Below are positions 6,993 through 50,080 of a DNA stretch of 64,000 bases, piece after piece. Positions within the stretch are counted from its first letter, which is position 1, and every line of letters begins with the position of its first letter. The notes below the pieces were generated by a model. It was not told the DNA's origin and made no database searches. It saw only the letters and a program-made list of their open reading frames with translations. Source of the stretch: Octopus vulgaris. Taxonomy: Eukaryota. A program made the translations under genes and the position numbers. The stretch covers positions 112,902,001-112,966,000 of the forward strand of contig OX597820.1 of the NCBI GenBank assembly GCA_951406725.2. Direction: 5' to 3'.

Positions 6993-7057
<65 letters not shown>

Positions 7058-7058
<1 letters not shown>

Positions 7059-7641
7059 TTTGTGGAGAATGGCGATTTGACGTCTATATCTAGCATGTTG
7101 ACTGTCCACTTTTCGTGTTCAGTCCTTAATTGGTATATATAAATATTTTAATCTTCGGATTCTTTCTTTAATATGCTAGACCACTGGTTCTAATTGATAA
7201 ATATCAATTTTTACCCTAAATTTAATTTTATATAAATATTTGTTCTCTAACCGATAAATTAACTGCTGCTAACTATTAGCTGCAGGCTAGTTTTCTCGGG
7301 TCTCATCGCGCCAAAGTAGAGACATTTGAAATATATATTTCAAATGTAATAGGCCGTACTCCATGCACGCGATATTTCGGTATCGTGTTGGCATTTAGTA
7401 TAGCAAATTGCATTTTATATGGGACCATGCTGATGATGGTTGCACTTTTCCTTGCGGAAAATAACAACCGAAACTAAATTTAGTACATGGGTAAATATTT
7501 ATTTCGTATATTTTTCACTTGTTTATTGCTTTGGTTTTGTGTTGAGTTTGATCTGAGAACATAGACTTTTTGTGGAGAATGGCGATTTGACGTCTATATC
7601 TAGCATGTTGACTGTCCACTTTTCGTGTTCAGTCCTTAATT

Positions 7642-7650
<9 letters not shown>
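7058..7650 (+). mobile_element. HHR-bearing 510-bp unit with ~80-bp terminal direct repeat (retrozyme/pseudo-LTR-like)
   Basis: 7058-7140 is repeated at 7568-7650 (period 510); flanked by (TA)n; canonical HHR inside. Confidence 0.8.
7425..7490 (+). ncRNA. Type I hammerhead ribozyme with canonical core
   Basis: CCATG-CTGATGA-T-GGTTG-[CAC TTTTCC TTGC GGAAAA TAA]-CAACC-GAAA-CTAAATTTAG-TA-CATGG: all three stems pair; predicted cut after GUA (7485). Confidence 0.85.
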
Positions 7651-7682
<32 letters not shown>

Positions 7683-7684
<2 letters not shown>

Positions 7685-7924
7685 CACGTTAAAATGCTCG
7701 AACCGATCGTGACGATGCCGGACCCTCCGGCCCCTGTGCAGGTGGCACGTAAAAGCACCCAATCCACTCACGGAGTGGTTGGCGTTAGGAAGGGCATCCA
7801 GCCGTAGAAACTCTGCCAGATTCAGACTGGAGCCTGGTGCGGCCCCTGGCTTCCCAGACCCGGTCAAACCGTCCAACCTGTGCTAGCGCGGAAAGCGGAC
7901 GTTAAACGATGATGATGATGATGA

Positions 7925-7927
<3 letters not shown>
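7683..7927 (+). mobile_element. SINE (family 3) 3' part with (GAT)n tail
   Basis: GTGGTTGGCGTTAGGAAGGGCATCCAG core and CGGACGTTAAACGATGATG tail; matches 47200-47450. Confidence 0.8.
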
Positions 7928-18477: not shown

Positions 18478-19600
18478 AGGGAGGCTGCATTATGTTGATG
18501 ACACCTTCATATTCTGGCTCTACCTGGAGGATATCCAAGTACTACAAGATCGCATGAACCCAATGAAGTCATCCATACAGTTCACAATGGAAAAGGAAAA
18601 GGACAATCAGCTGGCATTCTTGGACGTATTAATAACACACACTGAGTATGGGCCCAGGGAATCTGTATACCGCAAGCCAACCTTCACAAGACAATACCTC
18701 AACTTCAACTCCCACCATCTATACAGTATAAAGAGAGGGATTGCTCAGTGCCTAAAACATCGAGCAAAGACTATAAGTAGTGATCCTAATACACACCAGG
18801 AAGAAATGATCCGGCTAAGAGATAATCTGCTATGCAACAACTACCCAAAGAACATACTATCCACTCCAATTAGAAAGAGGAGAGAGGATGAAACCCATAA
18901 ACTGAGCACAGTCAGTCTACCTTATGTCAAAGGCCTATTGGAAAAGATGTAAAAGGTATGTGGCCCATATGACATCAGGACAGTATTCAGAAGTAATATG
19001 ATGCTTCGCAAGTATCTTTCCAAGTAAAACCACCTTAGGAAAGAATATGACCAAAAACTGAATGTATTCTATCCCATGCAGTTGTGGTAGGTTATACAAA
19101 GGTGAAATATGCCACCCCCTTAAAGTAAGGATAGGAGAACATCATAAAGCTGTGACACAAAGGGATGTTGAAAAATCGGGTATAGCCAGACATGTATGGA
19201 AAAACAGAGACCACCTCCTGCTGTGGGATGAATTTAAAATAATTGACAGAGAACACTGATGGAAAATACAAAGATTAAAAGAGGCTGTACATATGCCAGG
19301 ACACAATAACCTCCTTAGCAGACCACGATGCAGATATGAATGTAATATGGGGGCCAGTGTTAAGAAAAGATAAAATACTAGGTTTATAAACCCCCAAAAT
19401 TCACTCCATAATTGTCCACAGGCATATAGTGTAGTGGGTAAGTGCACAGGCTACAAACCCTCAGATTCTAAGTTAATAATATAAAAAGGGAATAATATCA
19501 GCAACATACCTAAGGAACAAGAACAGAGGAAGCTTGGGTATGAAAGCTGCTGAGTACATCTATTTGTCCATTGTAAATAATGTACATAATTCCTCATCTT
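18478..19600 (+). pseudogene. 5'-truncated Penelope-like element (RT C-terminus and GIY-YIG)
   Basis: YVDDTF, LAFLDVLI, VYRKPT, YSIPCSCGRLYKGE..LKVRIGEH, with stops and frameshifts. Confidence 0.9.
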
Positions 19601-35122: not shown

Positions 35123-35845
35123 TTATATATATAAAACTGGGAATGTGTGTCTATCTGTCTGTGTGTTTCCCTAAAACTTGAGAACTACACAACCAATTTC
35201 ATTCAAATTTTACACATGCCTTACTTAGGGTCCGGGGAGTGTCATTGGCAAAAAAAAATGTTCAACTTCTTGCCTAGAGCGAGCCCATAGCAATATCATA
35301 TCTTCTCCACTACTTCAGTATTATGTGTTAAAAGTGAAACAAAAACATTTCTCTATTTTATGTCAGATACTTTCACTTTAACAATAAAAATAATAATAAC
35401 AATTGAATTATATGTAGTAAGTAATAATTAAAATCAAACTAAAGTATAATATTATCGTAACATAACAAAAGTAAAAATATAGCAATTGGTATAAAATTGC
35501 ATCAATGACTTGAACTTGAATCAGTGGTTTCACATGAATGGGAATAAATAAAATATAAAATTTAAGTGCAGAAATGGAATAGTCCAGATGGAGGTGTGCA
35601 CGGCTTTTACATTAGATTATTTGCTAATTAGCTAGCATTAAGCATTCTACTGAGTACCGCTTCTGTTAATTGCGTTATTTTTCTGTTTGCGTTGTGAGAA
35701 AATTGCTGCCTCCATTTAAGAGAGTCGAAGTTGTGAATTTATTGTTTATACCAACTGCTTTGAACAGTGCCCGTTGTGAAACGGTGATTTTCGCCCTACG
35801 GGGCAGAAAATTTTGTATTATTTGAAATTTGCTACCTTTGAGGTG

Positions 35846-37267
35846 ATGGAGTTCGACTTAACGTCGAAGGACGATTTTCCCGTGATGGGAAAAGGTGAAA
35901 CCATGGAAAACCCAGTAACCAAACAGTCATTCTCGGCCGCGGTGGGCGGCGCTATGATAGAGGTCGAATTCAAGATCGAACAGCTGTATGAATACAGGAA
36001 TCTTGTAAAGGTGGAAGGAGGAGAGATAAGGCTGGTACCGCCGCAAGCGAAAGTGCAAGAAATCAAGGAAAGGATTGTAACTTATAAAGTGTATAGCTTT
36101 AAGGAAAAAAGATTATGGACGCGAAAAACGAAATTGTTGAGAAGTGCCTGTCCCCGGTGTGGGACAGAATTCGTCACATCGCGAGAGGCGCACGTAGTGC
36201 TACGGTAGAGGTGCACTTCGACACGGCAGAAGTGGCGAAGGAGGTGTCGTCGTTAACCTTAAAAAGCGACGACATCATGTTGTTACCCTCGTATATGGGG
36301 AAACGAACTGCAAAGTTAGTGGTAGATGACATACCCAGAGGGTACGACATCATGTGGGTGGCAGCGGCGGTACTACACAACATGGAGCGGGAAATTTCAA
36401 TTCTGCAAATGAGAAGGAAGGAAGTGGTACGCTGGAAGGGTCAGACCTTGGAACTCCTCGTACAGGCAGAGAACAAGATCTTGGAGAGCCTGCCTGACAG
36501 AATTTTTAATGAGGACGGCACGTCCATGAGAGTGTCGGTGGAGGGACGTAGACCCAGATGCTTCAAGTGTGGAGAGAAGGGTCACGTCCGGTCCAACTGC
36601 ATTAAGAAAAAAGAACAGAAGAAACGCCTCCTCAAAGTGTACCTGTCACTGAAGGGGAGGAAACAAGCAAGAACAACCAAATGAAGAAGACAAGTACGGA
36701 AACGAAAACGGATTCAAAAGAACCAATGGACTACACACAAGTCACACACAAAAGAAAAAAGAGAACACCCAGGACTCCCCTCCCCAAACAAGGAAAAAAA
36801 CAACAAACACAGCAGACACACACATTAAACAAATCCCCCAACCCTACCCCCATGGCACTGTTTTCATTGGAAAACAGTTTGCCAAACCCCTCCCCATAAA
36901 ACAAGACATCAAAAAGTGCATATCGAAAAACGAAAGAATTATAGCCTTTGATGAAAAAAATGAAAAAGTTTACAAATGCTGCAAACTCGCGAGATTTCCA
37001 CTGTATAGTAGAACCTCAGATGGGAAGGCGACCGCTCGTTTCGCGAAGGTAGGGGAGAACGAGTGGAAGGAGGAGGTTCTTCAGGAACACCTGAGGAACC
37101 GTCTTATTAGAGATGTAACCAAGGAGGTAATGGAGGGTAAACTGGCAATAACCCCGGCAACCACACCCACCCAGAGCCCAGTGGCAACGCCGGTCAAGAA
37201 CCCTGCAGCAACGGAAGAAAGGGAAGCAGGCAGATTGAAACTGTCATGCTCCCTCTCGCAACCGTGA
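35846..37267 (+). pseudogene. ORF1 of copy 1 (three frameshifts in A7 runs)
   Basis: Fragments match the copy-2 ORF1, including CFKCGEKGHVRSNC. Confidence 0.85.
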
Positions 37268-37295
37268 GTATATACATTTCCTTCTCTCACCCACA

Positions 37296-40200
37296 ATGGC
37301 TAAGCTGGGCTGTATAAATGTACGTGGAATGGGGTCGAAACGGAAACAAATTTGTTTCCTGAACGACCTCACGACACACAGTGTAGATATTGCTATTGCA
37401 ACCGAGTCCAAGATGAGCGAGACCCAAGCGTTCTCGCCTCTTCTAAATGGTTTCGAGAAATTTATTTCTCCTAGCCGAGGAAGAGGCAGAGGCGTGGCAG
37501 TCTTCATCAGGAAGAGCTTGGACTTGCAGGTAAGTACTGTCTTTCTGGACCCAGAAGGCAGGCTGGTTGTCCTGGATGTGACTCACGTAAGTAAACAGTC
37601 CTTCAGGTTGGTAGCTGTCTACGCCCCGAACGAGGGTAGACAGACGGGTTTTTTCCGGAACCTGGAGCCCTTTTTAGCGACGTCGAAAACAGTAATCCTA
37701 GTAGGGGACTTTAACACTGTCCTTGAAGCGCACATCGACAGTGTTGGCTCAACCAATAGGAAGGGGAACCCTAGCCTCAAGGGTCTACTAGAGAGCTTTG
37801 ATCTAGTGGACCGTTACCGACTGGATGAGCCGAGCGTTCCACAGTGGACGTGGAGTAACAACGACGGCTCACACAGATCGTATCTAGATAGGATATTTAT
37901 TAAGAAAAGAGATAAGGATACGTTTAGTTGTCCACAATTTCATATTGTACCTTACTCGGATCACAAATTTGTGACGTGTGAGGTGCAATTAGACAAGTGT
38001 CATAGACAGGGACCCGGGTACTGGAAGCTGAACAAGGCTATTTTGAATTGTGAAGACTTCCGTACCCGGATTAAGGTGTTAGTTCAGAGGGCATTGTGTG
38101 GCACCATCATTAACAATAGATGGTGGCACGCCCTCAAAAGAGCCATTCGTTTAGAGTCCGTCAGATTTAGCAATCAGCTAAGGATAGATAGGGCTAGTCT
38201 AGAGGGCGATTTAGTCAAGAATCTAGACGAGGCAATGGAAGCTGGCTCTGCATCCGGAGTGTTGGCGGCAAGGACGGTATTGTACCGTCACCTTAACTCC
38301 AAGTACGAAGGTTGCAGAGTCAGAGCTAAGCTGCGTGCTGGGAAACGAGAAGGTATTAACGTGGCCGGATGGGCCCGTCGTGTGGAGAGTAAGAGAGGCA
38401 ATAGAGCCTCAATTAAATCTTTGACTGACGAACAGGGACAAAAGATCTATGGACAGGAGGAGATGCAAAAGTTTCTTCACCAGCATTTCGCTCGCGTGTT
38501 CGGGGGTGGTGGTTCGCTGGATCGGGGGAGGGCCTTAAAGGACTTCCTGGCCGGCGGACCGCGGCTCGCGGGGCGTGAAGTGGAGTGCTGTGAGGGAGCG
38601 ATCACTCCCGCGGAGATAAAGGAGATACTGGCCGGATGCGCCGGGGAGAAGTCGCCGGGGTTGGATGGTCTGCCCTATGAGTTTTACCAAAGTATGCCGG
38701 ACTTGTTCGGGGGAATACTGGCAGGCGTCTACACGAACTGGCAGCAGAATGGGAGAATCCCCAGTTCTGTAAGCCGGGGAGTGGTGACGCTAATCCAGAA
38801 AGACCCGAGCAAGGGGGATAATATTAGTAACTACAGGCCCATAACTCTACTTAATGTAGAGTTAAAGATTCTGGCCAAGGTGTTAGCAAAAAGGTTGACG
38901 GTTGTCGTGGAGAAACTTGTAGGGAGAGCACAGACATGTGCAATTCCAGGCAGGTCGATCCAGGACAATCTTCACCTTATACGCTACACCTTAGATAGGG
39001 TGGGTAAATTAGCCGGCAAAGGTGGGGTAATGGTCCATTTAGACCAAAGTAAAGCCTTCGATAGGGTAGACCATGGGTACCTGGCGACGGTCCTCGAAGC
39101 GACTGGGCTGGGCCCTGAATTTCGCGGGTGGATCTCCGCTATGTATAGCGGCATCAAGTCCACCGTCCAGATAAACGGTTACCTAACGGAACCGTTTTCG
39201 ATCAAGTGTTCAGTGCGTCAGGGGTGCCCCTTGTCACCACTTTTGTACGTATTGGCTCTTGAGCCACTGCTGCGAAAGTTGGAGAGGCTGGGGAGTAACT
39301 CGGATGAAATCGGAGGTGGGAGGACGGTGACTGCTTACGCGGATGACGTCACCCTCATCGTGTCCAAAGAGGCCCAACTACCTTGTGTGGAGGAGGTTAT
39401 CAGAGGATACGAGGCGGTGGCAGGAGCAAAGGTTAACAAGGACAAATCGGTTGGCTTGCGCCTCGGCACCTGGAGGAGCAAGCCGATATCGTCCAGTGTC
39501 GTGGGACACTGGACGGATGGCCCTGTTAAGTTGCTGGGAGTTTGGTTTGGACCAGACTCCCAAACGGAGAAGAACTGGAGCGAGGTGACGAGCAGGGTGG
39601 AGGCCATAGTACGGACCTGGTCCGGAAGGTCTCTGTCCCTGAAAGGAAGGGCGGAGGTGGTGCAGATGTTTATTGCATCTGTAATCACCTACCGCCTGAC
39701 CGTTGTCCCTTGCCCCGATTCATGGCTTAACAAGTTGGAACGAATCCTTTTCCGCTTTTTGTGGAAAGGAGGAAAGCCACTTGTGAGACGATCCGTTTGC
39801 TGCCAAGAACCGTTAAAGGGCGGGTTAGGGATGCCTTGGTTGATGATGCGCAGACATGCGTTGAGGCTAAGGCACCTCTGGCACCACCTGGAGGGTGATA
39901 AGGTGTGGAGTCCGCTGGCAGAGGGATTTTTCCCGAGACCGGCCTCCTTAGTTAATTTTAAACCCGGTTACATCAAAAGATGGAAACTGACTCCATGGCA
40001 AAAAGAGTGCCGACAGGCACTCACGCTGATCCACAAGACGGGTAAGGCCGGCTGCGGAAATACCACCTCGGTATTTTATAGAGGGCTGGTGGAGGTAAAA
40101 AATGACGACGTCCTAGGAGGGGCTCTGGGGTTTGATGAAGACCAGCTCGCCAACCTGTTTAAAAAAACTTTCAGGTCGGGGTATTTGGATAATTTCCAAA

Positions 40201-40583
40201 GATCCCTGGCCTGGCAGTGCTACAGGAATGCTTTACCTGTTCGCGAGAAGTTATCGCGGCACGGAGTTCAAGTGCCACCGACGTGTCCAAGGTGCGGGTT
40301 GGACGATGAAACCGTCCAGCACGCCTTTGTTCACTGTCGGAAGTTGTCCGACTTGATAAGTTACGCAGAACACGTGTTGTCCCATCTGGGACGAGTACAG
40401 CTGTCGGCTGAGTCTATGATTAAGATGATACCGCCAACTGGACTCTCGAAGGAAGGTGAGGCATGTTTCCACTGCACGGTGGCAGTGGTAAAGGAATGCA
40501 TGTGGAGAACGAGAATGGAAGGAGCCGCGATAGGGTCCTTCATCTCCGACCCGGCTTGCTCACTTACTTCAGATATCATCTGA
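37296..40583 (+). CDS. ORF2 of copy 1: APE endonuclease, reverse transcriptase, zinc finger (C-terminal frameshift)
   Basis: NVRG, GDFN, SDH, PGLDGL, DQSKAFDRV, QGCPLSP, YADD, CPRC..HAFVHC; 1-bp deletion near 40547. Confidence 0.9.
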   Translation: MAKLGCINVRGMGSKRKQICFLNDLTTHSVDIAIATESKMSETQAFSPLLNGFEKFISPSRGRGRGVAVFIRKSLDLQVSTVFLDPEGRLVVLDVTHVSKQSFRLVAVYAPNEGRQTGFFRNLEPFLATSKTVILVGDFNTVLEAHIDSVGSTNRKGNPSLKGLLESFDLVDRYRLDEPSVPQWTWSNNDGSHRSYLDRIFIKKRDKDTFSCPQFHIVPYSDHKFVTCEVQLDKCHRQGPGYWKLNKAILNCEDFRTRIKVLVQRALCGTIINNRWWHALKRAIRLESVRFSNQLRIDRASLEGDLVKNLDEAMEAGSASGVLAARTVLYRHLNSKYEGCRVRAKLRAGKREGINVAGWARRVESKRGNRASIKSLTDEQGQKIYGQEEMQKFLHQHFARVFGGGGSLDRGRALKDFLAGGPRLAGREVECCEGAITPAEIKEILAGCAGEKSPGLDGLPYEFYQSMPDLFGGILAGVYTNWQQNGRIPSSVSRGVVTLIQKDPSKGDNISNYRPITLLNVELKILAKVLAKRLTVVVEKLVGRAQTCAIPGRSIQDNLHLIRYTLDRVGKLAGKGGVMVHLDQSKAFDRVDHGYLATVLEATGLGPEFRGWISAMYSGIKSTVQINGYLTEPFSIKCSVRQGCPLSPLLYVLALEPLLRKLERLGSNSDEIGGGRTVTAYADDVTLIVSKEAQLPCVEEVIRGYEAVAGAKVNKDKSVGLRLGTWRSKPISSSVVGHWTDGPVKLLGVWFGPDSQTEKNWSEVTSRVEAIVRTWSGRSLSLKGRAEVVQMFIASVITYRLTVVPCPDSWLNKLERILFRFLWKGGKPLVRRSVCCQEPLKGGLGMPWLMMRRHALRLRHLWHHLEGDKVWSPLAEGFFPRPASLVNFKPGYIKRWKLTPWQKECRQALTLIHKTGKAGCGNTTSVFYRGLVEVKNDDVLGGALGFDEDQLANLFKKTFRSGYLDNFQRSLAWQCYRNALPVREKLSRHGVQVPPTCPRCGLDDETVQHAFVHCRKLSDLISYAEHVLSHLGRVQLSAESMIKMIPPTGLSKEGEACFHCTVAVVKECMWRTRMEGAAIGSFISDPACSLTSDII

Positions 40584-41118
40584 AGAGCAAAATGGGGCTG
40601 GAGAAGAGGACCCTGCCGCGGGGTGTGTACGAGAAAAGATGGAAGGAAGTAGAAAGAAAGGTGGGTGTGAGAAACCCAGCTTGATCATGGAGGAGAGAGA
40701 GGAAGTGGAAGCTGCAGGGCCTCACAAATTGCCGGGGTGTAAAAACGCCAGTGAGACGACAAGGTTACCTACTGTTGTTTGCTATACTAGTTAAGCAAAG
40801 GTTAATATTTTTATAACGAATTTAAACAATTTTTAAACGATTCTCTTAAATGTTTTTGTATGTATGTCCTGTATTTGTAATTCTGTGTACCGATTTTTAT
40901 AATCGTAATAAAGAAATATCTACTGAGTACCGCTTCTGTTAATTGCGTTATTTTTCTGTTTGCGTTGTGAGAAAATTGCTGCCTCCATTTAAGAGAGTCG
41001 AAGTTGTGAATTTATTGTTTATACCAACTGCTTTGAACAGTGCCCGTTGTGAAACGGTGATTTTCGCCCTACGGGGCAGAAAATTTTGTATTATTTGAAA
41101 TTTGCTACCTTTGAGGTG

Positions 41119-42543
41119 ATGGAGTTCGACTTAACGTCGAAGGACGATTTTCCCGTGATGGGAAAAGGTGAAACCATGGAAAACCCAGTAACCAAACAGT
41201 CATTCTCGGCCGCGGTGGGCGGCGCTATGATAGAGGTCGAATTCAAGATCGAACAGCTGTATGAATACAGGAATCTTGTAAAGGTGGAAGGAGGAGAGAT
41301 AAGGCTGGTACCGCCGCAAGCGAAAGTGCAAGAAATCAAGGAAAGGATTGTAACTTATAAAGTGTATAGCTTTAAGGAAAAAAAGATTATGGACGCGAAA
41401 AACGAAATTGTTGAGAAGTGCCTGTCCCCGGTGTGGGACAGAATTCGTCACATCGCGAGAGGCGCACGTAGTGCTACGGTAGAGGTGCACTTCGACACGG
41501 CAGAAGTGGCGAAGGAGGTGTCGTCGTTAACCTTAAAAAGCGACGACATCATGTTGTTACCCTCGTATATGGGGAAACGAACTGCAAAGTTAGTGGTAGA
41601 TGACATACCCAGAGGGTACGACATCATGTGGGTGGCAGCGGCGGTACTACACAACATGGAGCGGGAAATTTCAATTCTGCAAATGAGAAGGAAGGAAGTG
41701 GTACGCTGGAAGGGTCAGACCTTGGAACTCCTCGTACAGGCAGAGAACAAGATCTTGGAGAGCCTGCCTGACAGAATTTTTAATGAGGACGGCACGTCCA
41801 TGAGAGTGTCGGTGGAGGGACGTAGACCCAGATGCTTCAAGTGTGGAGAGAAGGGTCACGTCCGGTCCAACTGCATTAAGAAAAAAAGAACAGAAGAAAC
41901 GCCTCCTCAAAGTGTACCTGTCACTGAAGGGGAGGAAACAAGCAAGAACAACCAAATGAAGAAGACAAGTACGGAAACGAAAACGGATTCAAAAGAACCA
42001 ATGGACTACACACAAGTCACACACAAAAGAAAAAAAGAGAACACCCAGGACTCCCCTCCCCAAACAAGGAAAAAAACAACAAACACAGCAGACACACACA
42101 TTAAACAAATCCCCCAACCCTACCCCCATGGCACTGTTTTCATTGGAAAACAGTTTGCCAAACCCCTCCCCATAAAACAAGACATCAAAAAGTGCATATC
42201 GAAAAACGAAAGAATTATAGCCTTTGATGAAAAAAATGAAAAAGTTTACAAATGCTGCAAACTCGCGAGATTTCCACTGTATAGTAGAACCTCAGATGGG
42301 AAGGCGACCGCTCGTTTCGCGAAGGTAGGGGAGAACGAGTGGAAGGAGGAGGTTCTTCAGGAACACCTGAGGAACCGTCTTATTAGAGATGTAACCAAGG
42401 AGGTAATGGAGGGTAAACTGGCAATAACCCCGGCAACCACACCCACCCAGAGCCCAGTGGCAACGCCGGTCAAGAACCCTGCAGCAACGGAAGAAAGGGA
42501 AGCAGGCAGATTGAAACTGTCATGCTCCCTCTCGCAACCGTGA
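41119..42543 (+). CDS. ORF1 gag-like nucleic-acid-binding protein with CCHC knuckle
   Basis: Open frame from 41086 (first ATG at 41119); SFSAAV N-terminal motif; CX2CX4HX4C. Confidence 0.9.
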   Translation: MEFDLTSKDDFPVMGKGETMENPVTKQSFSAAVGGAMIEVEFKIEQLYEYRNLVKVEGGEIRLVPPQAKVQEIKERIVTYKVYSFKEKKIMDAKNEIVEKCLSPVWDRIRHIARGARSATVEVHFDTAEVAKEVSSLTLKSDDIMLLPSYMGKRTAKLVVDDIPRGYDIMWVAAAVLHNMEREISILQMRRKEVVRWKGQTLELLVQAENKILESLPDRIFNEDGTSMRVSVEGRRPRCFKCGEKGHVRSNCIKKKRTEETPPQSVPVTEGEETSKNNQMKKTSTETKTDSKEPMDYTQVTHKRKKENTQDSPPQTRKKTTNTADTHIKQIPQPYPHGTVFIGKQFAKPLPIKQDIKKCISKNERIIAFDEKNEKVYKCCKLARFPLYSRTSDGKATARFAKVGENEWKEEVLQEHLRNRLIRDVTKEVMEGKLAITPATTPTQSPVATPVKNPAATEEREAGRLKLSCSLSQP

Positions 42544-42571
42544 GTATATACATTTCCTTCTCTCACCCACA

Positions 42572-45500
42572 ATGGCTAAGCTGGGCTGTATAAATGTACG
42601 TGGAATGGGGTCGAAACGGAAACAAATTTGTTTCCTGAACGACCTCACGACACACAGTGTAGATATTGCTATTGCAACCGAGTCCAAGATGAGCGAGACC
42701 CAAGCGTTCTCGCCTCTTCTAAATGGTTTCGAGAAATTTATTTCTCCTAGCCGAGGAAGAGGCAGAGGCGTGGCAGTCTTCATCAGGAAGAGCTTGGACT
42801 TGCAGGTAAGTACTGTCTTTCTGGACCCAGAAGGCAGGCTGGTTGTCCTGGATGTGACTCACGTAAGTAAACAGTCCTTCAGGTTGGTAGCTGTCTACGC
42901 CCCGAACGAGGGTAGACAGACGGGTTTTTTCCGGAACCTGGAGCCCTTTTTAGCGACGTCGAAAACAGTAATCCTAGTAGGGGACTTTAACACTGTCCTT
43001 GAAGCGCACATCGACAGTGTTGGCTCAACCAATAGGAAGGGGAACCCTAGCCTCAAGGGTCTACTAGAGAGCTTTGATCTAGTGGACCGTTACCGACTGG
43101 ATGAGCCGAGCGTTCCACAGTGGACGTGGAGTAACAACGACGGCTCACACAGATCGTATCTAGATAGGATATTTATTAAGAAAAGAGATAAGGATACGTT
43201 TAGTTGTCCACAATTTCATATTGTACCTTACTCGGATCACAAATTTGTGACGTGTGAGGTGCAATTAGACAAGTGTCATAGACAGGGACCCGGGTACTGG
43301 AAGCTGAACAAGGCTATTTTGAATTGTGAAGACTTCCGTACCCGGATTAAGGTGTTAGTTCAGAGGGCATTGTGTGGCACCATCATTAACAATAGATGGT
43401 GGCACGCCCTCAAAAGAGCCATTCGTTTAGAGTCCGTCAGATTTAGCAATCAGCTAAGGATAGATAGGGCTAGTCTAGAGGGCGATTTAGTCAAGAATCT
43501 AGACGAGGCAATGGAAGCTGGCTCTGCATCCGGAGTGTTGGCGGCAAGGACGGTATTGTACCGTCACCTTAACTCCAAGTACGAAGGTTGCAGAGTCAGA
43601 GCTAAGCTGCGTGCTGGGAAACGAGAAGGTATTAACGTGGCCGGATGGGCCCGTCGTGTGGAGAGTAAGAGAGGCAATAGAGCCTCAATTAAATCTTTGA
43701 CTGACGAACAGGGACAAAAGATCTATGGACAGGAGGAGATGCAAAAGTTTCTTCACCAGCATTTCGCTCGCGTGTTCGGGGGTGGTGGTTCGCTGGATCG
43801 GGGGAGGGCCTTAAAGGACTTCCTGGCCGGCGGACCGCGGCTCGCGGGGCGTGAAGTGGAGTGCTGTGAGGGAGCGATCACTCCCGCGGAGATAAAGGAG
43901 ATACTGGCCGGATGCGCCGGGGAGAAGTCGCCGGGGTTGGATGGTCTGCCCTATGAGTTTTACCAAAGTATGCCGGACTTGTTCGGGGGAATACTGGCAG
44001 GCGTCTACACGAACTGGCAGCAGAATGGGAGAATCCCCAGTTCTGTAAGCCGGGGAGTGGTGACGCTAATCCAGAAAGACCCGAGCAAGGGGGATAATAT
44101 TAGTAACTACAGGCCCATAACTCTACTTAATGTAGAGTTAAAGATTCTGGCCAAGGTGTTAGCAAAAAGGTTGACGGTTGTCGTGGAGAAACTTGTAGGG
44201 AGAGCACAGACATGTGCAATTCCAGGCAGGTCGATCCAGGACAATCTTCACCTTATACGCTACACCTTAGATAGGGTGGGTAAATTAGCCGGCAAAGGTG
44301 GGGTAATGGTCCATTTAGACCAAAGTAAAGCCTTCGATAGGGTAGACCATGGGTACCTGGCGACGGTCCTCGAAGCGACTGGGCTGGGCCCTGAATTTCG
44401 CGGGTGGATCTCCGCTATGTATAGCGGCATCAAGTCCACCGTCCAGATAAACGGTTACCTAACGGAACCGTTTTCGATCAAGTGTTCAGTGCGTCAGGGG
44501 TGCCCCTTGTCACCACTTTTGTACGTATTGGCTCTTGAGCCACTGCTGCGAAAGTTGGAGAGGCTGGGGAGTAACTCGGATGAAATCGGAGGTGGGAGGA
44601 CGGTGACTGCTTACGCGGATGACGTCACCCTCATCGTGTCCAAAGAGGCCCAACTACCTTGTGTGGAGGAGGTTATCAGAGGATACGAGGCGGTGGCAGG
44701 AGCAAAGGTTAACAAGGACAAATCGGTTGGCTTGCGCCTCGGCACCTGGAGGAGCAAGCCGATATCGTCCAGTGTCGTGGGACACTGGACGGATGGCCCT
44801 GTTAAGTTGCTGGGAGTTTGGTTTGGACCAGACTCCCAAACGGAGAAGAACTGGAGCGAGGTGACGAGCAGGGTGGAGGCCATAGTACGGACCTGGTCCG
44901 GAAGGTCTCTGTCCCTGAAAGGAAGGGCGGAGGTGGTGCAGATGTTTATTGCATCTGTAATCACCTACCGCCTGACCGTTGTCCCTTGCCCCGATTCATG
45001 GCTTAACAAGTTGGAACGAATCCTTTTCCGCTTTTTGTGGAAAGGAGGAAAGCCACTTGTGAGACGATCCGTTTGCTGCCAAGAACCGTTAAAGGGCGGG
45101 TTAGGGATGCCTTGGTTGATGATGCGCAGACATGCGTTGAGGCTAAGGCACCTCTGGCACCACCTGGAGGGTGATAAGGTGTGGAGTCCGCTGGCAGAGG
45201 GATTTTTCCCGAGACCGGCCTCCTTAGTTAATTTTAAACCCGGTTACATCAAAAGATGGAAACTGACTCCATGGCAAAAAGAGTGCCGACAGGCACTCAC
45301 GCTGATCCACAAGACGGGTAAGGCCGGCTGCGGAAATACCACCTCGGTATTTTATAGAGGGCTGGTGGAGGTAAAAAATGACGACGTCCTAGGAGGGGCT
45401 CTGGGGTTTGATGAAGACCAGCTCGCCAACCTGTTTAAAAAAACTTTCAGGTCGGGGTATTTGGATAATTTCCAAAGATCCCTGGCCTGGCAGTGCTACA

Positions 45501-45961
45501 GGAATGCTTTACCTGTTCGCGAGAAGTTATCGCGGCACGGAGTTCAAGTGCCACCGACGTGTCCAAGGTGCGGGTTGGACGATGAAACCGTCCAGCACGC
45601 CTTTGTTCACTGTCGGAAGTTGTCCGACTTGATAAGTTACGCAGAACACGTGTTGTCCCATCTGGGACGAGTACAGCTGTCGGCTGAGTCTATGATTAAG
45701 ATGATACCGCCAACTGGACTCTCGAAGGAAGGTGAGGCATGTTTCCACTGCACGGTGGCAGTGGTAAAGGAATGCATGTGGAGAACGAGAATGGAAGGAG
45801 CCGCGATAGGGTCCTTCATCTCCGGACCCGGCTTGCTCACTTACTTCAGATATCATCTGAAGAGCAAAATGGGGCTGGAGAAGAGGACCCTGCCGCGGGG
45901 TGTGTACGAGAAAAGATGGAAGGAAGTAGAAAGAAAGGTGGGTGTGAGAAACCCAGCTTGA
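42572..45961 (+). CDS. ORF2 (1129 aa): APE endonuclease, reverse transcriptase, C-terminal zinc finger
   Basis: All catalytic motifs intact (GDFN, YLDRIF, SDH, WKLN, DQSKAFD, QGCPLSP, YADD, KGGLG, CPRC-HAFVHC). Confidence 0.97.
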   Translation: MAKLGCINVRGMGSKRKQICFLNDLTTHSVDIAIATESKMSETQAFSPLLNGFEKFISPSRGRGRGVAVFIRKSLDLQVSTVFLDPEGRLVVLDVTHVSKQSFRLVAVYAPNEGRQTGFFRNLEPFLATSKTVILVGDFNTVLEAHIDSVGSTNRKGNPSLKGLLESFDLVDRYRLDEPSVPQWTWSNNDGSHRSYLDRIFIKKRDKDTFSCPQFHIVPYSDHKFVTCEVQLDKCHRQGPGYWKLNKAILNCEDFRTRIKVLVQRALCGTIINNRWWHALKRAIRLESVRFSNQLRIDRASLEGDLVKNLDEAMEAGSASGVLAARTVLYRHLNSKYEGCRVRAKLRAGKREGINVAGWARRVESKRGNRASIKSLTDEQGQKIYGQEEMQKFLHQHFARVFGGGGSLDRGRALKDFLAGGPRLAGREVECCEGAITPAEIKEILAGCAGEKSPGLDGLPYEFYQSMPDLFGGILAGVYTNWQQNGRIPSSVSRGVVTLIQKDPSKGDNISNYRPITLLNVELKILAKVLAKRLTVVVEKLVGRAQTCAIPGRSIQDNLHLIRYTLDRVGKLAGKGGVMVHLDQSKAFDRVDHGYLATVLEATGLGPEFRGWISAMYSGIKSTVQINGYLTEPFSIKCSVRQGCPLSPLLYVLALEPLLRKLERLGSNSDEIGGGRTVTAYADDVTLIVSKEAQLPCVEEVIRGYEAVAGAKVNKDKSVGLRLGTWRSKPISSSVVGHWTDGPVKLLGVWFGPDSQTEKNWSEVTSRVEAIVRTWSGRSLSLKGRAEVVQMFIASVITYRLTVVPCPDSWLNKLERILFRFLWKGGKPLVRRSVCCQEPLKGGLGMPWLMMRRHALRLRHLWHHLEGDKVWSPLAEGFFPRPASLVNFKPGYIKRWKLTPWQKECRQALTLIHKTGKAGCGNTTSVFYRGLVEVKNDDVLGGALGFDEDQLANLFKKTFRSGYLDNFQRSLAWQCYRNALPVREKLSRHGVQVPPTCPRCGLDDETVQHAFVHCRKLSDLISYAEHVLSHLGRVQLSAESMIKMIPPTGLSKEGEACFHCTVAVVKECMWRTRMEGAAIGSFISGPGLLTYFRYHLKSKMGLEKRTLPRGVYEKRWKEVERKVGVRNPA

Positions 45962-46246
45962 TCATGGAGGAGAGAGAGGAAGTGGAAGCTGCAGGGCCTC
46001 ACAAATTGCCGGGGTGTAAAAACGCCAGTGAGACGACAAGGTTACCTACTGTTGTTTGCTATACTAGTTAAGCAAAGGTTAATATTTTTATAACGAATTT
46101 AAACAATTTTTAAACGATTCTCTTAAATGTTTTTGTATGTATGTCCTGTATTTGTAATTCTGTGTACCGATTTTTATAATCGTAATAAAGAAATATCTAC
46201 TGAGTACTGCTCTTAGTTTATTTCTGATCCATAAAGGCCTATAGCT

Positions 46247-47152: not shown

Positions 47153-47199
<47 letters not shown>

Positions 47200-47203
<4 letters not shown>

Positions 47204-47450
47204 CATAAAATACACCAATCTGACCGTGGCCGTTGCCAGCCCGCCTGGCACCTGTGCAGGTGGCACATAAAAAGCACCCACTACACTCACGGAGTGGTTG
47301 GCGTTAGGAAGGGCATCCAGCTGTAGAAACATTGCCAGATTAGACTGGAGCCTGGTGCAGCCTTCTGGCTTCCCAGAACCCCGGTCGAACCGTCCAACCC
47401 ATGCTAGCATGGAGAACGGACGTTAAACGACGATGATGACGATGATGATG
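47200..47450 (+). mobile_element. SINE (family 3)
   Basis: Homologous to 7683-7927. Confidence 0.85.
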
Positions 47451-47459
47451 ATATATATA

Positions 47460-47690
47460 TATTTCTTTACTACCCACAAGGGGCTATCACAGAGGGGACA
47501 AAGAAGGACAGACAAATGGATTAAGTCGATTACATCGACCCCAGTGCGTAACTGGTACTTAATTCATCGACCCCGAAAGGATGAAAGGCAAAGTCGACCT
47601 TGGCAGAATTTGAACTCAGAATGTAACGGTAGACGAAATACAGCTATGCATTTCACCCGGTGTGCTAATGTTTCTGCCAGCACGCTGCCT
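47460..47690 (-). mobile_element. SINE (family 2)
   Basis: Reverse complement of the 25406-25626 family. Confidence 0.85.
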
Positions 47691-49299: not shown

Positions 49300-50080
49300 T
49301 TATATAAGCTTAAAGCTTATGGCAATCACCGAAATGACTAAGGAAGATAGTCTAATAAAGGGGCATCTAAACCCTCAAGCTTCTATAAAAATACCATTAT
49401 TATTATTTACAGGATTGTAGAACATGGCACCATATAAAAAAAACCCATTTGCACTGAAAGCATATAGAAAGTTTGTTTACTAAAAAACAAATACGAACTA
49501 AAATAGTTCTTAAATTTGACAGAAACAGGGGAGGCTAATTCACAGGTGTAAAGGTAACACACTTAGTCGCATTAACAAAGGGATGTGTGTTTGTGTCCCA
49601 TGTGGATAGGAAAACCTTCTTTTCTCTGTTGAGGGCATATATGACCCTAAAATAGACTACTTTCCTTAGTCATTGCACAGTGATCGCTTTAAGCATATAT
49701 AAAAATACCATTATTATTATTTACAGGATTGTAGAACATGGCACCATATAAAAAAAACCATTTGCACTGAAAGCATATAGAAAGTTTGTTTACTTAAAAA
49801 CAAATAGGAACTAAAATAGTTCTTAAATTTGATAGAAACGGAGGAAGCTAATTCACAGGTGTAAAGGTAACACACTTAGTCGCATTAACAAAGGGATGTG
49901 TGTTCGTGTCCCACGTGGATAGGAAAACCTTCTTTTCTCTGTTGAGGGCTTATATGACCCTAAATTAGACTAATTTCCTTAGTCATTGCACAGTGATCGC
50001 TTTAAGCATATACCATTATTATTATTTACAGGATTGTAAAACATGGCACCGTATAAAGAACCATTCACACCGAAAGCATA
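49300..50080. repeat. ~310-bp unit x2.2 preceded by an inverted copy of its end
   Basis: TACCATTATT unit starts at 49392, 49706, 50011; 49300-49380 is a diverged reverse complement of 49628-49700. Confidence 0.85.

Follow-up and report, generated by a model that had tools for sequence, protein, structure and literature searches.

Metazoan non-LTR retrozymes, as described by Cervera and de la Pena 2020 (PMC7229834), are short, low-GC, non-coding tandem repeats of 150-450 bp with a type I hammerhead in each unit, dispersed as monomers to multimers in genomes that also contain PLEs. Expression and circles were demonstrated there for coral, mussel and axolotl retrozymes. The available text of that paper proposes mobilisation by PLEs and contains neither V shapes nor two fixed ends. 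Li, Clavereau and Pollet 2026 (bioRxiv 10.64898/2026.07.22.740005) likewise regard non-LTR retrozymes as non-autonomous PLE derivatives, a link drawn in the available text from co-occurrence and pLTR homology in Xenopus. The sections at hand give sizes of 51-972 bp and families mostly of seven units or fewer, favour local tandem amplification in a sample of vertebrates, three insects and a coral, and report that one of nine predicted Xenopus retrozymes cleaved in vitro. The standing hypothesis that animal retrozymes move via circular RNA with the help of PLEs has, as far as these texts go, been supported by co-occurrence and pLTR homology.

The EN+ PLEs Neptune, Poseidon and Naiad are known for partial tandems, an adjacent inverted copy placed head to head, a tail at one end and a bias towards (TA)n (Craig et al. 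2021, 10.1101/2021.04.23.441226), and for palindromic head-to-head junctions (Arkhipova et al. 2013, PMC3846280). The consulted portion of Frangieh et al. 2024 (PMC11167929) identifies the tail as the stretch between two internal reverse transcriptase (RT) start sites, and indicates that in vitro insertion did not need hammerhead cleavage. PLE hammerheads lie in the repeat and are distinguished by an extra base between positions 9 and 10.1 and a palindromic helix III, according to the accessible part of Cervera and de la Pena 2014.

Here we describe a locus in a 64-kb window of the Octopus vulgaris genome (the window being the whole stretch of DNA analysed) that combines these two sets of features. 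It very probably represents an insertion of a non-coding, hammerhead-bearing family (a non-LTR retrozyme), likely mobilised in trans by a PLE, probably of the Neptune clade. By every feature testable from sequence the element is an animal non-LTR retrozyme, sharing with those of PMC7229834 the type I hammerhead per unit, the low-GC non-coding tandem structure, the dispersal as monomers to multimers and the presence of PLEs in the same genome. It differs from them, as described in that text, in its larger unit (502-513 nt), in a stem II with a second hairpin and a stem III of 4 bp, and in that the octopus family is known from sequence alone. The unit falls within the size range of Li et al. 2026, and their two-unit rule is satisfied by the family but not by the window copy, which has one hammerhead; the link to PLEs comes from insertion anatomy, no pLTR homology having been found in the PLE loci sampled. 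With EN+ PLEs the family shares the partial tandems, head-to-head inverted copies, palindromic junctions, one-end tail, (TA)n targets, two internal RT start sites and a hammerhead in the repeat, whereas its tail measures 96 nt against 30-40 nt, it has no reading frame, and its start sites coincide with TA tracts matching the target, those of Anolis Poseidon lying in an AC-rich stem-loop unlike the target (PMC11167929, in the part available). Plant LTR retrozymes, with a type III hammerhead in LTRs and a unique centre, differ from its type I motif and head-to-tail units. A literature search found no paper on this family, which may be listed in repeat databases or in the supplements to Cervera and de la Pena 2020. 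Both the kind of element and the individual PLE traits have been published before; the additions here are the slightly larger unit, a tail of 96 nt and an insertion record of unusual clarity.

Structure of the locus

The insertion and its flanks comprise the following features.

7058..7643, + strand: insertion with a single arm, 1.15 units long; its 3' end lies at family site A and its 5' end is arbitrary
7059..7568, + strand: non-coding repeat unit, 510 nt
7058..7141, + strand: exact 84-nt terminal repeat, copy 1
7568..7651, + strand: exact 84-nt terminal repeat, copy 2; final 8 nt run into (TA)n
7005..7055, no strand: (TA)n target, left side
7644..7682, no strand: (TA)n target, right side
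7322..7347, no strand: internal palindrome, 26 nt; centre of three head-to-head junctions in relatives

A first-pass annotation of this DNA had reported a 510-bp unit with repeated ends, placed in (TA)n and showing no protein homology, and all three points were confirmed: two exact 84-nt direct repeats lie at a spacing of 510, TA repeats occur on both flanks, and a trimer of the unit holds no stop-free frame longer than 65 codons. Each 84-nt repeat consists of 76 nt plus TATATATA, the latter blending into the microsatellite. The unit has a GC content of 33% and folds more stably than 100 of 100 shuffles (z -5.5); in most relatives it is 502-513 nt long. The RT and GIY-YIG reading frame by which an autonomous EN+ PLE is recognised is absent from the unit and joined to it at none of 138 insertion loci, and neither an own poly(A) or simple-repeat tail nor a tRNA was found in the element. 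Because it contains a single hammerhead, the window copy is a product that could not release a 510-nt monomer, contrary to the suggestion in the annotation that this locus may be a source of ~510-nt monomers. Multi-unit relatives could yield them, such as the one at G000:C14:46.82 Mb, which is 99% alike to the window copy. A short interspersed repeat with a (GAT)n end (7684-7927) adjoins the element in the same TA tract, and a second copy of it lies at ~47161-47462.

A dispersed family in the octopus genome

The genome searched comprises 2.8 Gb in 227 contigs. A DNA search returned 119 matches on many contigs from the best 40 of 1396 candidates, the best 30 matches being 96-100% alike. Exact matches to four short motifs numbered 741, 535, 1665 and 713, compared with 2, 0, 0 and 0 for the controls. 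The first 100 motif places correspond to 58 insertions, which extrapolates to ~970 insertions as a lower bound, one common subfamily being absent from that motif list. Family members are 76-100% alike, with older subfamilies at 76-85%, and the old subfamilies show an identical closed unit. Hammerheads occur by the hundreds, and consecutive tandem units each carry the type I motif. These copies indicate a dispersed family with recent mobility, and the description of the element as a young retrozyme in the first-pass annotation is supported by the hundreds of hammerheads, set in tandem units that are non-coding and as much as 100% alike.

Two hammerhead variants that looked solitary were considered as PLE ends and rejected, both being older subfamilies. 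L008 and L009 (G000:C6:126.38-126.39 Mb), two insertions 7.6 kb apart that are nearly identical and share a flank, are probably a local duplication or an assembly duplicate and were entered as a single count. Part of the unit was present in 20 sequencing runs from nine studies, none of them recorded as RNA; in four presumed-RNA runs, searched as contigs, the unit was partly covered and no joints were found, a result given no weight in either direction.

Structure and conservation of the hammerhead

The predicted ribozyme is made up of the following parts.

7425..7490, + strand: type I hammerhead; predicted cut after A7485
7425-7429/7486-7490, + strand: stem I
7430-7436, + strand: core CUGAUGA
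7437, + strand: extra U between A9 and G10.1
7438-7442/7465-7469, + strand: stem II with G10.1-C11.1
7446-7451/7456-7461, + strand: inner hairpin in stem II
7470-7473, + strand: GAAA
7473-7484, + strand: palindromic stem III

The type I core is present (C3-U4-G5-A6-N7-G8-A9, G12-A13-A14, A15.1-U16.1 and H17), with three helices of which helix I is open. An intact canonical hammerhead had been annotated here, and the full pairing, the second hairpin within stem II and the 12-nt palindrome of stem III are as described, but the core is not strictly canonical owing to the extra U7437, which, like the palindromic stem III, is a feature of PLE hammerheads (Cervera and de la Pena 2014). The motif was the sole match of a scan across the window, compared with one match in total in 100 first-order Markov 64-kb sequences scanned with equal stem lengths. 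The minimum-energy fold of 7421-7492 is a three-way junction (5 of 200 shuffles equally stable; z -1.98), a signal that is weak once more flanking sequence is included (z -0.90). No hammerhead family among the Rfam models matched at up to E 10, a miss that the long stem II insert may explain.

In an alignment of 18 distinct hammerhead copies, 97.8% of cells were paired in stems I, IIb and III, compared with at most 45% for slid controls, and five pairs were altered on both sides. The covariation score was reached by none of 500 shuffles, a control inflated by the relatedness of the copies. Stem II, which MAFFT misregistered, was excluded from this alignment and scored by script on 14 representatives: three of its pairs switch type, and G10.1-C11.1 is retained in nine of the 14, the window copy among them, the commonest young subfamilies having G-U or U-U in its place. 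Compensatory changes across subfamilies that are 76-100% alike show that the predicted ribozyme fold has been kept by selection. In a predicted circular monomer, stem I forms with a probability of ~0.06 and stem II of ~0.09; a hammerhead left mostly unformed would protect the circle, yet counts against free activity.

Insertion anatomy

Insertions were annotated in two sets. Set 1 comprised 103 insertions picked via the hammerhead motif or full-length likeness and is biased to long copies, while set 2 comprised 35 further insertions picked via a motif near the 3' end, namely 15 new ones within the first 30 motif places and 20 chosen ones, biased to short. The following landmarks recur.

7133, + strand: site A at unit 75, the first of the family's two fixed 3' ends, with an internal TA tract after it; the window copy ends at this site, at 7643
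7229, + strand: site B at about unit 171, the second of the two fixed 3' ends, with an internal TA-rich tract after it
7134..7229, + strand: 'tail' of 96 nt from site A to site B, carried by a single arm in V insertions
7530..7556, + strand: 5'-end hot spot in the family, at unit 472-498 and 45-70 nt 3' of the cut

The 3' ends of the family are restricted to sites A and B, and the 5' ends vary; two one-armed insertions in the chosen sample of 20 end outside both sites. Among the 67 two-armed insertions of set 1, 62 were A/B, one was A/A, none was B/B and four had a broken end, and all 28 of set 2 were A/B, so that across both sets 90 of the 91 two-armed insertions with both ends intact pair A with B. 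A further 36 insertions of set 1 were one-armed (29 A and 7 B). In set 2, one locus with two arms 235 nt apart was scored as two singles. A (TA)5+ tract adjoins 159 of 169 A/B ends and, when examined for target-site duplication, insertion ends blended into (TA)n. The region spanning the tail (7089-7235) folds stably (z -4.3).

In V insertions the two arms abut head to head through their 5' ends, in most cases to within a few bases. In set 1, 86 of 169 arms were longer than 510 nt, 22 exceeded two units, the longest reached 3338 nt and 16 insertions had both arms over one unit. Arms run through up to 6.6 head-to-tail units with no foreign sequence. Short 3' fragments make up most insertions in the 3'-picked sample. 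The terminal redundancy of the window copy is attributable to fixed initiation and variable termination. The first-pass annotation had ascribed it to reverse transcription around a circular or tandem RNA and had proposed a check for permuted or tandem copies; a fixed start with a variable stop accords with the former, circle and uncut tandem fitting equally, and the check returned tandems and variable 5' ends but no free permutation, the 3' ends being fixed at two sites. That annotation had also set a retrozyme against a solo PLE pseudo-LTR with tail, an opposition that dissolves in a family that inserts with the full PLE signature.

The PLE-like character of every insertion trait and the predominance of short 3' fragments would equally suit solo or truncated pseudo-LTRs with a tail, derived from an autonomous PLE yet to be found among PLE families that were examined in part (best 150 of 6136 and 141 of 5887 candidates). 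Such an origin is difficult to reconcile with head-to-tail arms of up to 6.6 turns free of foreign sequence, with the identical closed unit of the old subfamilies, and with the 138 insertion loci, of which none is joined to a Neptune reading frame and only two hold Neptune fragments, as separate insertions. It is largely refuted for the examined copies, and we consider it highly improbable.

The 5' ends cluster at the hot spot, with 36 of 70 falling within unit 472-498 in the 3'-picked sample and 16 of 35 in its unbiased first batch. Both arms ended within 5 nt of each other in 16 of 30 V insertions of this sample (permutation mean 4.5; 0/20000). A transcription start, with both cDNAs running off one RNA end, would explain the hot spot, as would a reverse-transcriptase stall at a long predicted rod followed by fold-back. 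Neither arm can derive from its partner in 21 of 74 V insertions, and B arms stop near site A in 15 of 74 compared with 6.7 expected, in a window set after seeing the data. Separately templated arms favour two priming events on RNA, at least in part of the cases.

Arms stopping near the start of their partner resemble LINE twin priming. A SINE-like or satellite repeat spread by LINE or DNA-level mechanisms, with inversions from twin priming, would accommodate this tendency of B arms as well as the 21 insertions that require separately templated arms, and the genome contains young APE-type LINEs that are intact, including a pair within the window. The element, however, lacks an own poly(A) or simple-repeat tail and a tRNA, its two internal fixed ends and multi-unit copying are PLE traits, and dispersed single insertions with sharp ends are unlike the spread of a satellite, making this origin very unlikely.

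Nature of the template

Stops within 3 nt of the predicted cut were found twice in 217 crossings, compared with 2.5 expected, and a motif just past the cut occurs about as often as one spanning it (713 vs 741). Templates cut at the hammerhead (linear monomers) were rejected as the main template because the 5' ends ignore the cut site, which makes a circle or an uncut multimer the likely template. The two arms of one V differ by a median of 0.3% (36 of 38 V at ≤2%), compared with a median of 4.2% between insertions, where 28% of comparisons are at ≤2%; six complex insertions and pairs with <80 shared columns were excluded from this comparison of 38 V. By this likeness, both arms of a V derive from one template lineage.

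Variation within insertions was assessed in 59 insertions aligned with MAFFT over 332 clean columns. Private variants common to all passes numbered 11, nine of them spanning both arms, while 71 were confined to one pass and eight were present in only some passes. The all-pass variants would fit one circular template or one uniform donor, and the partly shared variants point to some tandem growth after insertion. For the template of long arms, the alignments leave circle and uncut multimer at about even odds.

One reading, which we advance tentatively, is that the family records rolling-circle copying, by a PLE RT, of a small RNA circle generated by the ribozyme. Priming would have occurred twice on a single template, at two TA tracts separated by 96 nt, each tract serving one target strand. 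The same family and machinery may instead have operated without circles, a possibility we entertain without asserting it, with long uncut tandem transcripts as templates, arrays also expanding by unequal exchange and a hammerhead that is weak or protein-dependent. The cut site without an excess of 5' ends is in keeping with such transcripts, as are the short insertions stopping at the hot spot, which could be the 5' end of a linear transcript, and partly shared private variants in four insertions (L190, L195, L201 and L212) fit duplication in place. Unprocessed RNA was also the dominant substrate in the available part of Frangieh et al. 2024 (PMC11167929). Against templates of this kind stand the hammerhead fold, kept through compensatory changes in subfamilies 76-100% alike, and the units within an insertion, which are often identical across 330 columns yet unlike the nearest other insertion (L156, L157, L158, L159 and L183). 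Moreover, no multi-site order of unit variants repeats between the 59 insertions, as a mixed tandem donor would give.

Candidate PLE machinery

At least three young Neptune-type families, 45-55% alike, are present in the genome, as judged from a PLE survey of the best 150 of 6136 and 141 of 5887 candidates. The three intact families have RT and GIY-YIG frames of 775-781 codons with a Neptune-type cysteine linker and end in (TA)n, and in two of them a pair of TA-flanked 3' ends lies at a spacing of about 38 nt. The unit showed no likeness to 30 GIY-YIG loci by blastn, nor to 41 and 5 PLE loci from the sampled families by nhmmer, Naiads not being among these. The element was joined to a Neptune reading frame at none of the 138 insertion loci, and the Neptune fragments at two of them are separate insertions; a same-strand fragment in L028 was rejected as a partner, as it stops in its own (TA)n ~670 nt ahead of the element. 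The mobilising partner is inferred by kind and would probably belong to the Neptune clade.

Proposed mechanism and significance

Under mobilisation of the retrozyme by a PLE, multi-unit loci would be transcribed, and cleavage of the RNA at its hammerheads would release ~510-nt monomers that then become circular by ligation. (TA)n would be nicked by a PLE protein, and reverse transcription would begin at two internal sites on one RNA lineage, at A on one target strand and at B on the other. Synthesis would circle the unit for a variable distance before the two cDNAs were joined at their far ends, often via fold-back or microhomology. In the window copy only the site-A arm would remain, after 1.15 turns. 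Counting against this explanation are the 96-nt tail, longer than in PLEs (30-40 nt) and in the local Neptunes (~38 nt), the absence of a partner with sequence likeness among the sampled PLE loci, the low stem I and II probabilities in the circle, the G-U or U-U at 10.1-11.1 in the commonest young subfamilies, and the partly shared variants. The single cleaving case among nine predicted Xenopus retrozymes (Li et al. 2026) and the in vitro insertion that could dispense with hammerhead cleavage (Frangieh et al. 2024) weigh on the same side.

The octopus family backs the PLE half of the standing hypothesis via insertion anatomy at >100 loci; circles are not established. Its main value is as a test system for unexplained steps of PLE integration, its regular insertions making the copying mechanism testable, and it offers sharp predictions in start sites A and B, the cut site and the 5' stop hot spot. 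If the rolling-circle reading is true, circular retrozyme RNA, the PLE tail and head-to-head PLE insertion would be one mechanism, and a 510-nt substrate and three intact candidate enzymes would be at hand for in vitro work.

Additional repeats in the genome and window

Two intact Neptune frames lie in tandem, 4270 nt apart, at G000:C3:5853500-5863200 (L246), with a long coding stretch upstream of the RT frame, likewise seen in L076-L079. The commonest young Neptune family (L052, L076 at G000:C16:20.84 Mb, and relatives) has a degenerate hammerhead-like stretch near its 3' end, with UGAUAA for CUGAUGA and a palindromic stem III, conserved in many copies; it was recognised by eye, the motif scan having missed it. 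Within the window, positions 35646-46211 hold a 5.3-kb head-to-tail duplication whose copies are 99.9% alike, each with a zinc-knuckle frame and an endonuclease/RT/zf-RVT frame (1114 and 1148 codons), the first ORF1 being interrupted; this is a young LINE in tandem. A decayed Neptune-type PLE RT fragment, ~33% identical to the young families, occupies 18491-18928. A 313-nt unit in 2.3 tandem copies at 49384-50080, with no hammerhead by motif scan, could be another PLE-type partial tandem.
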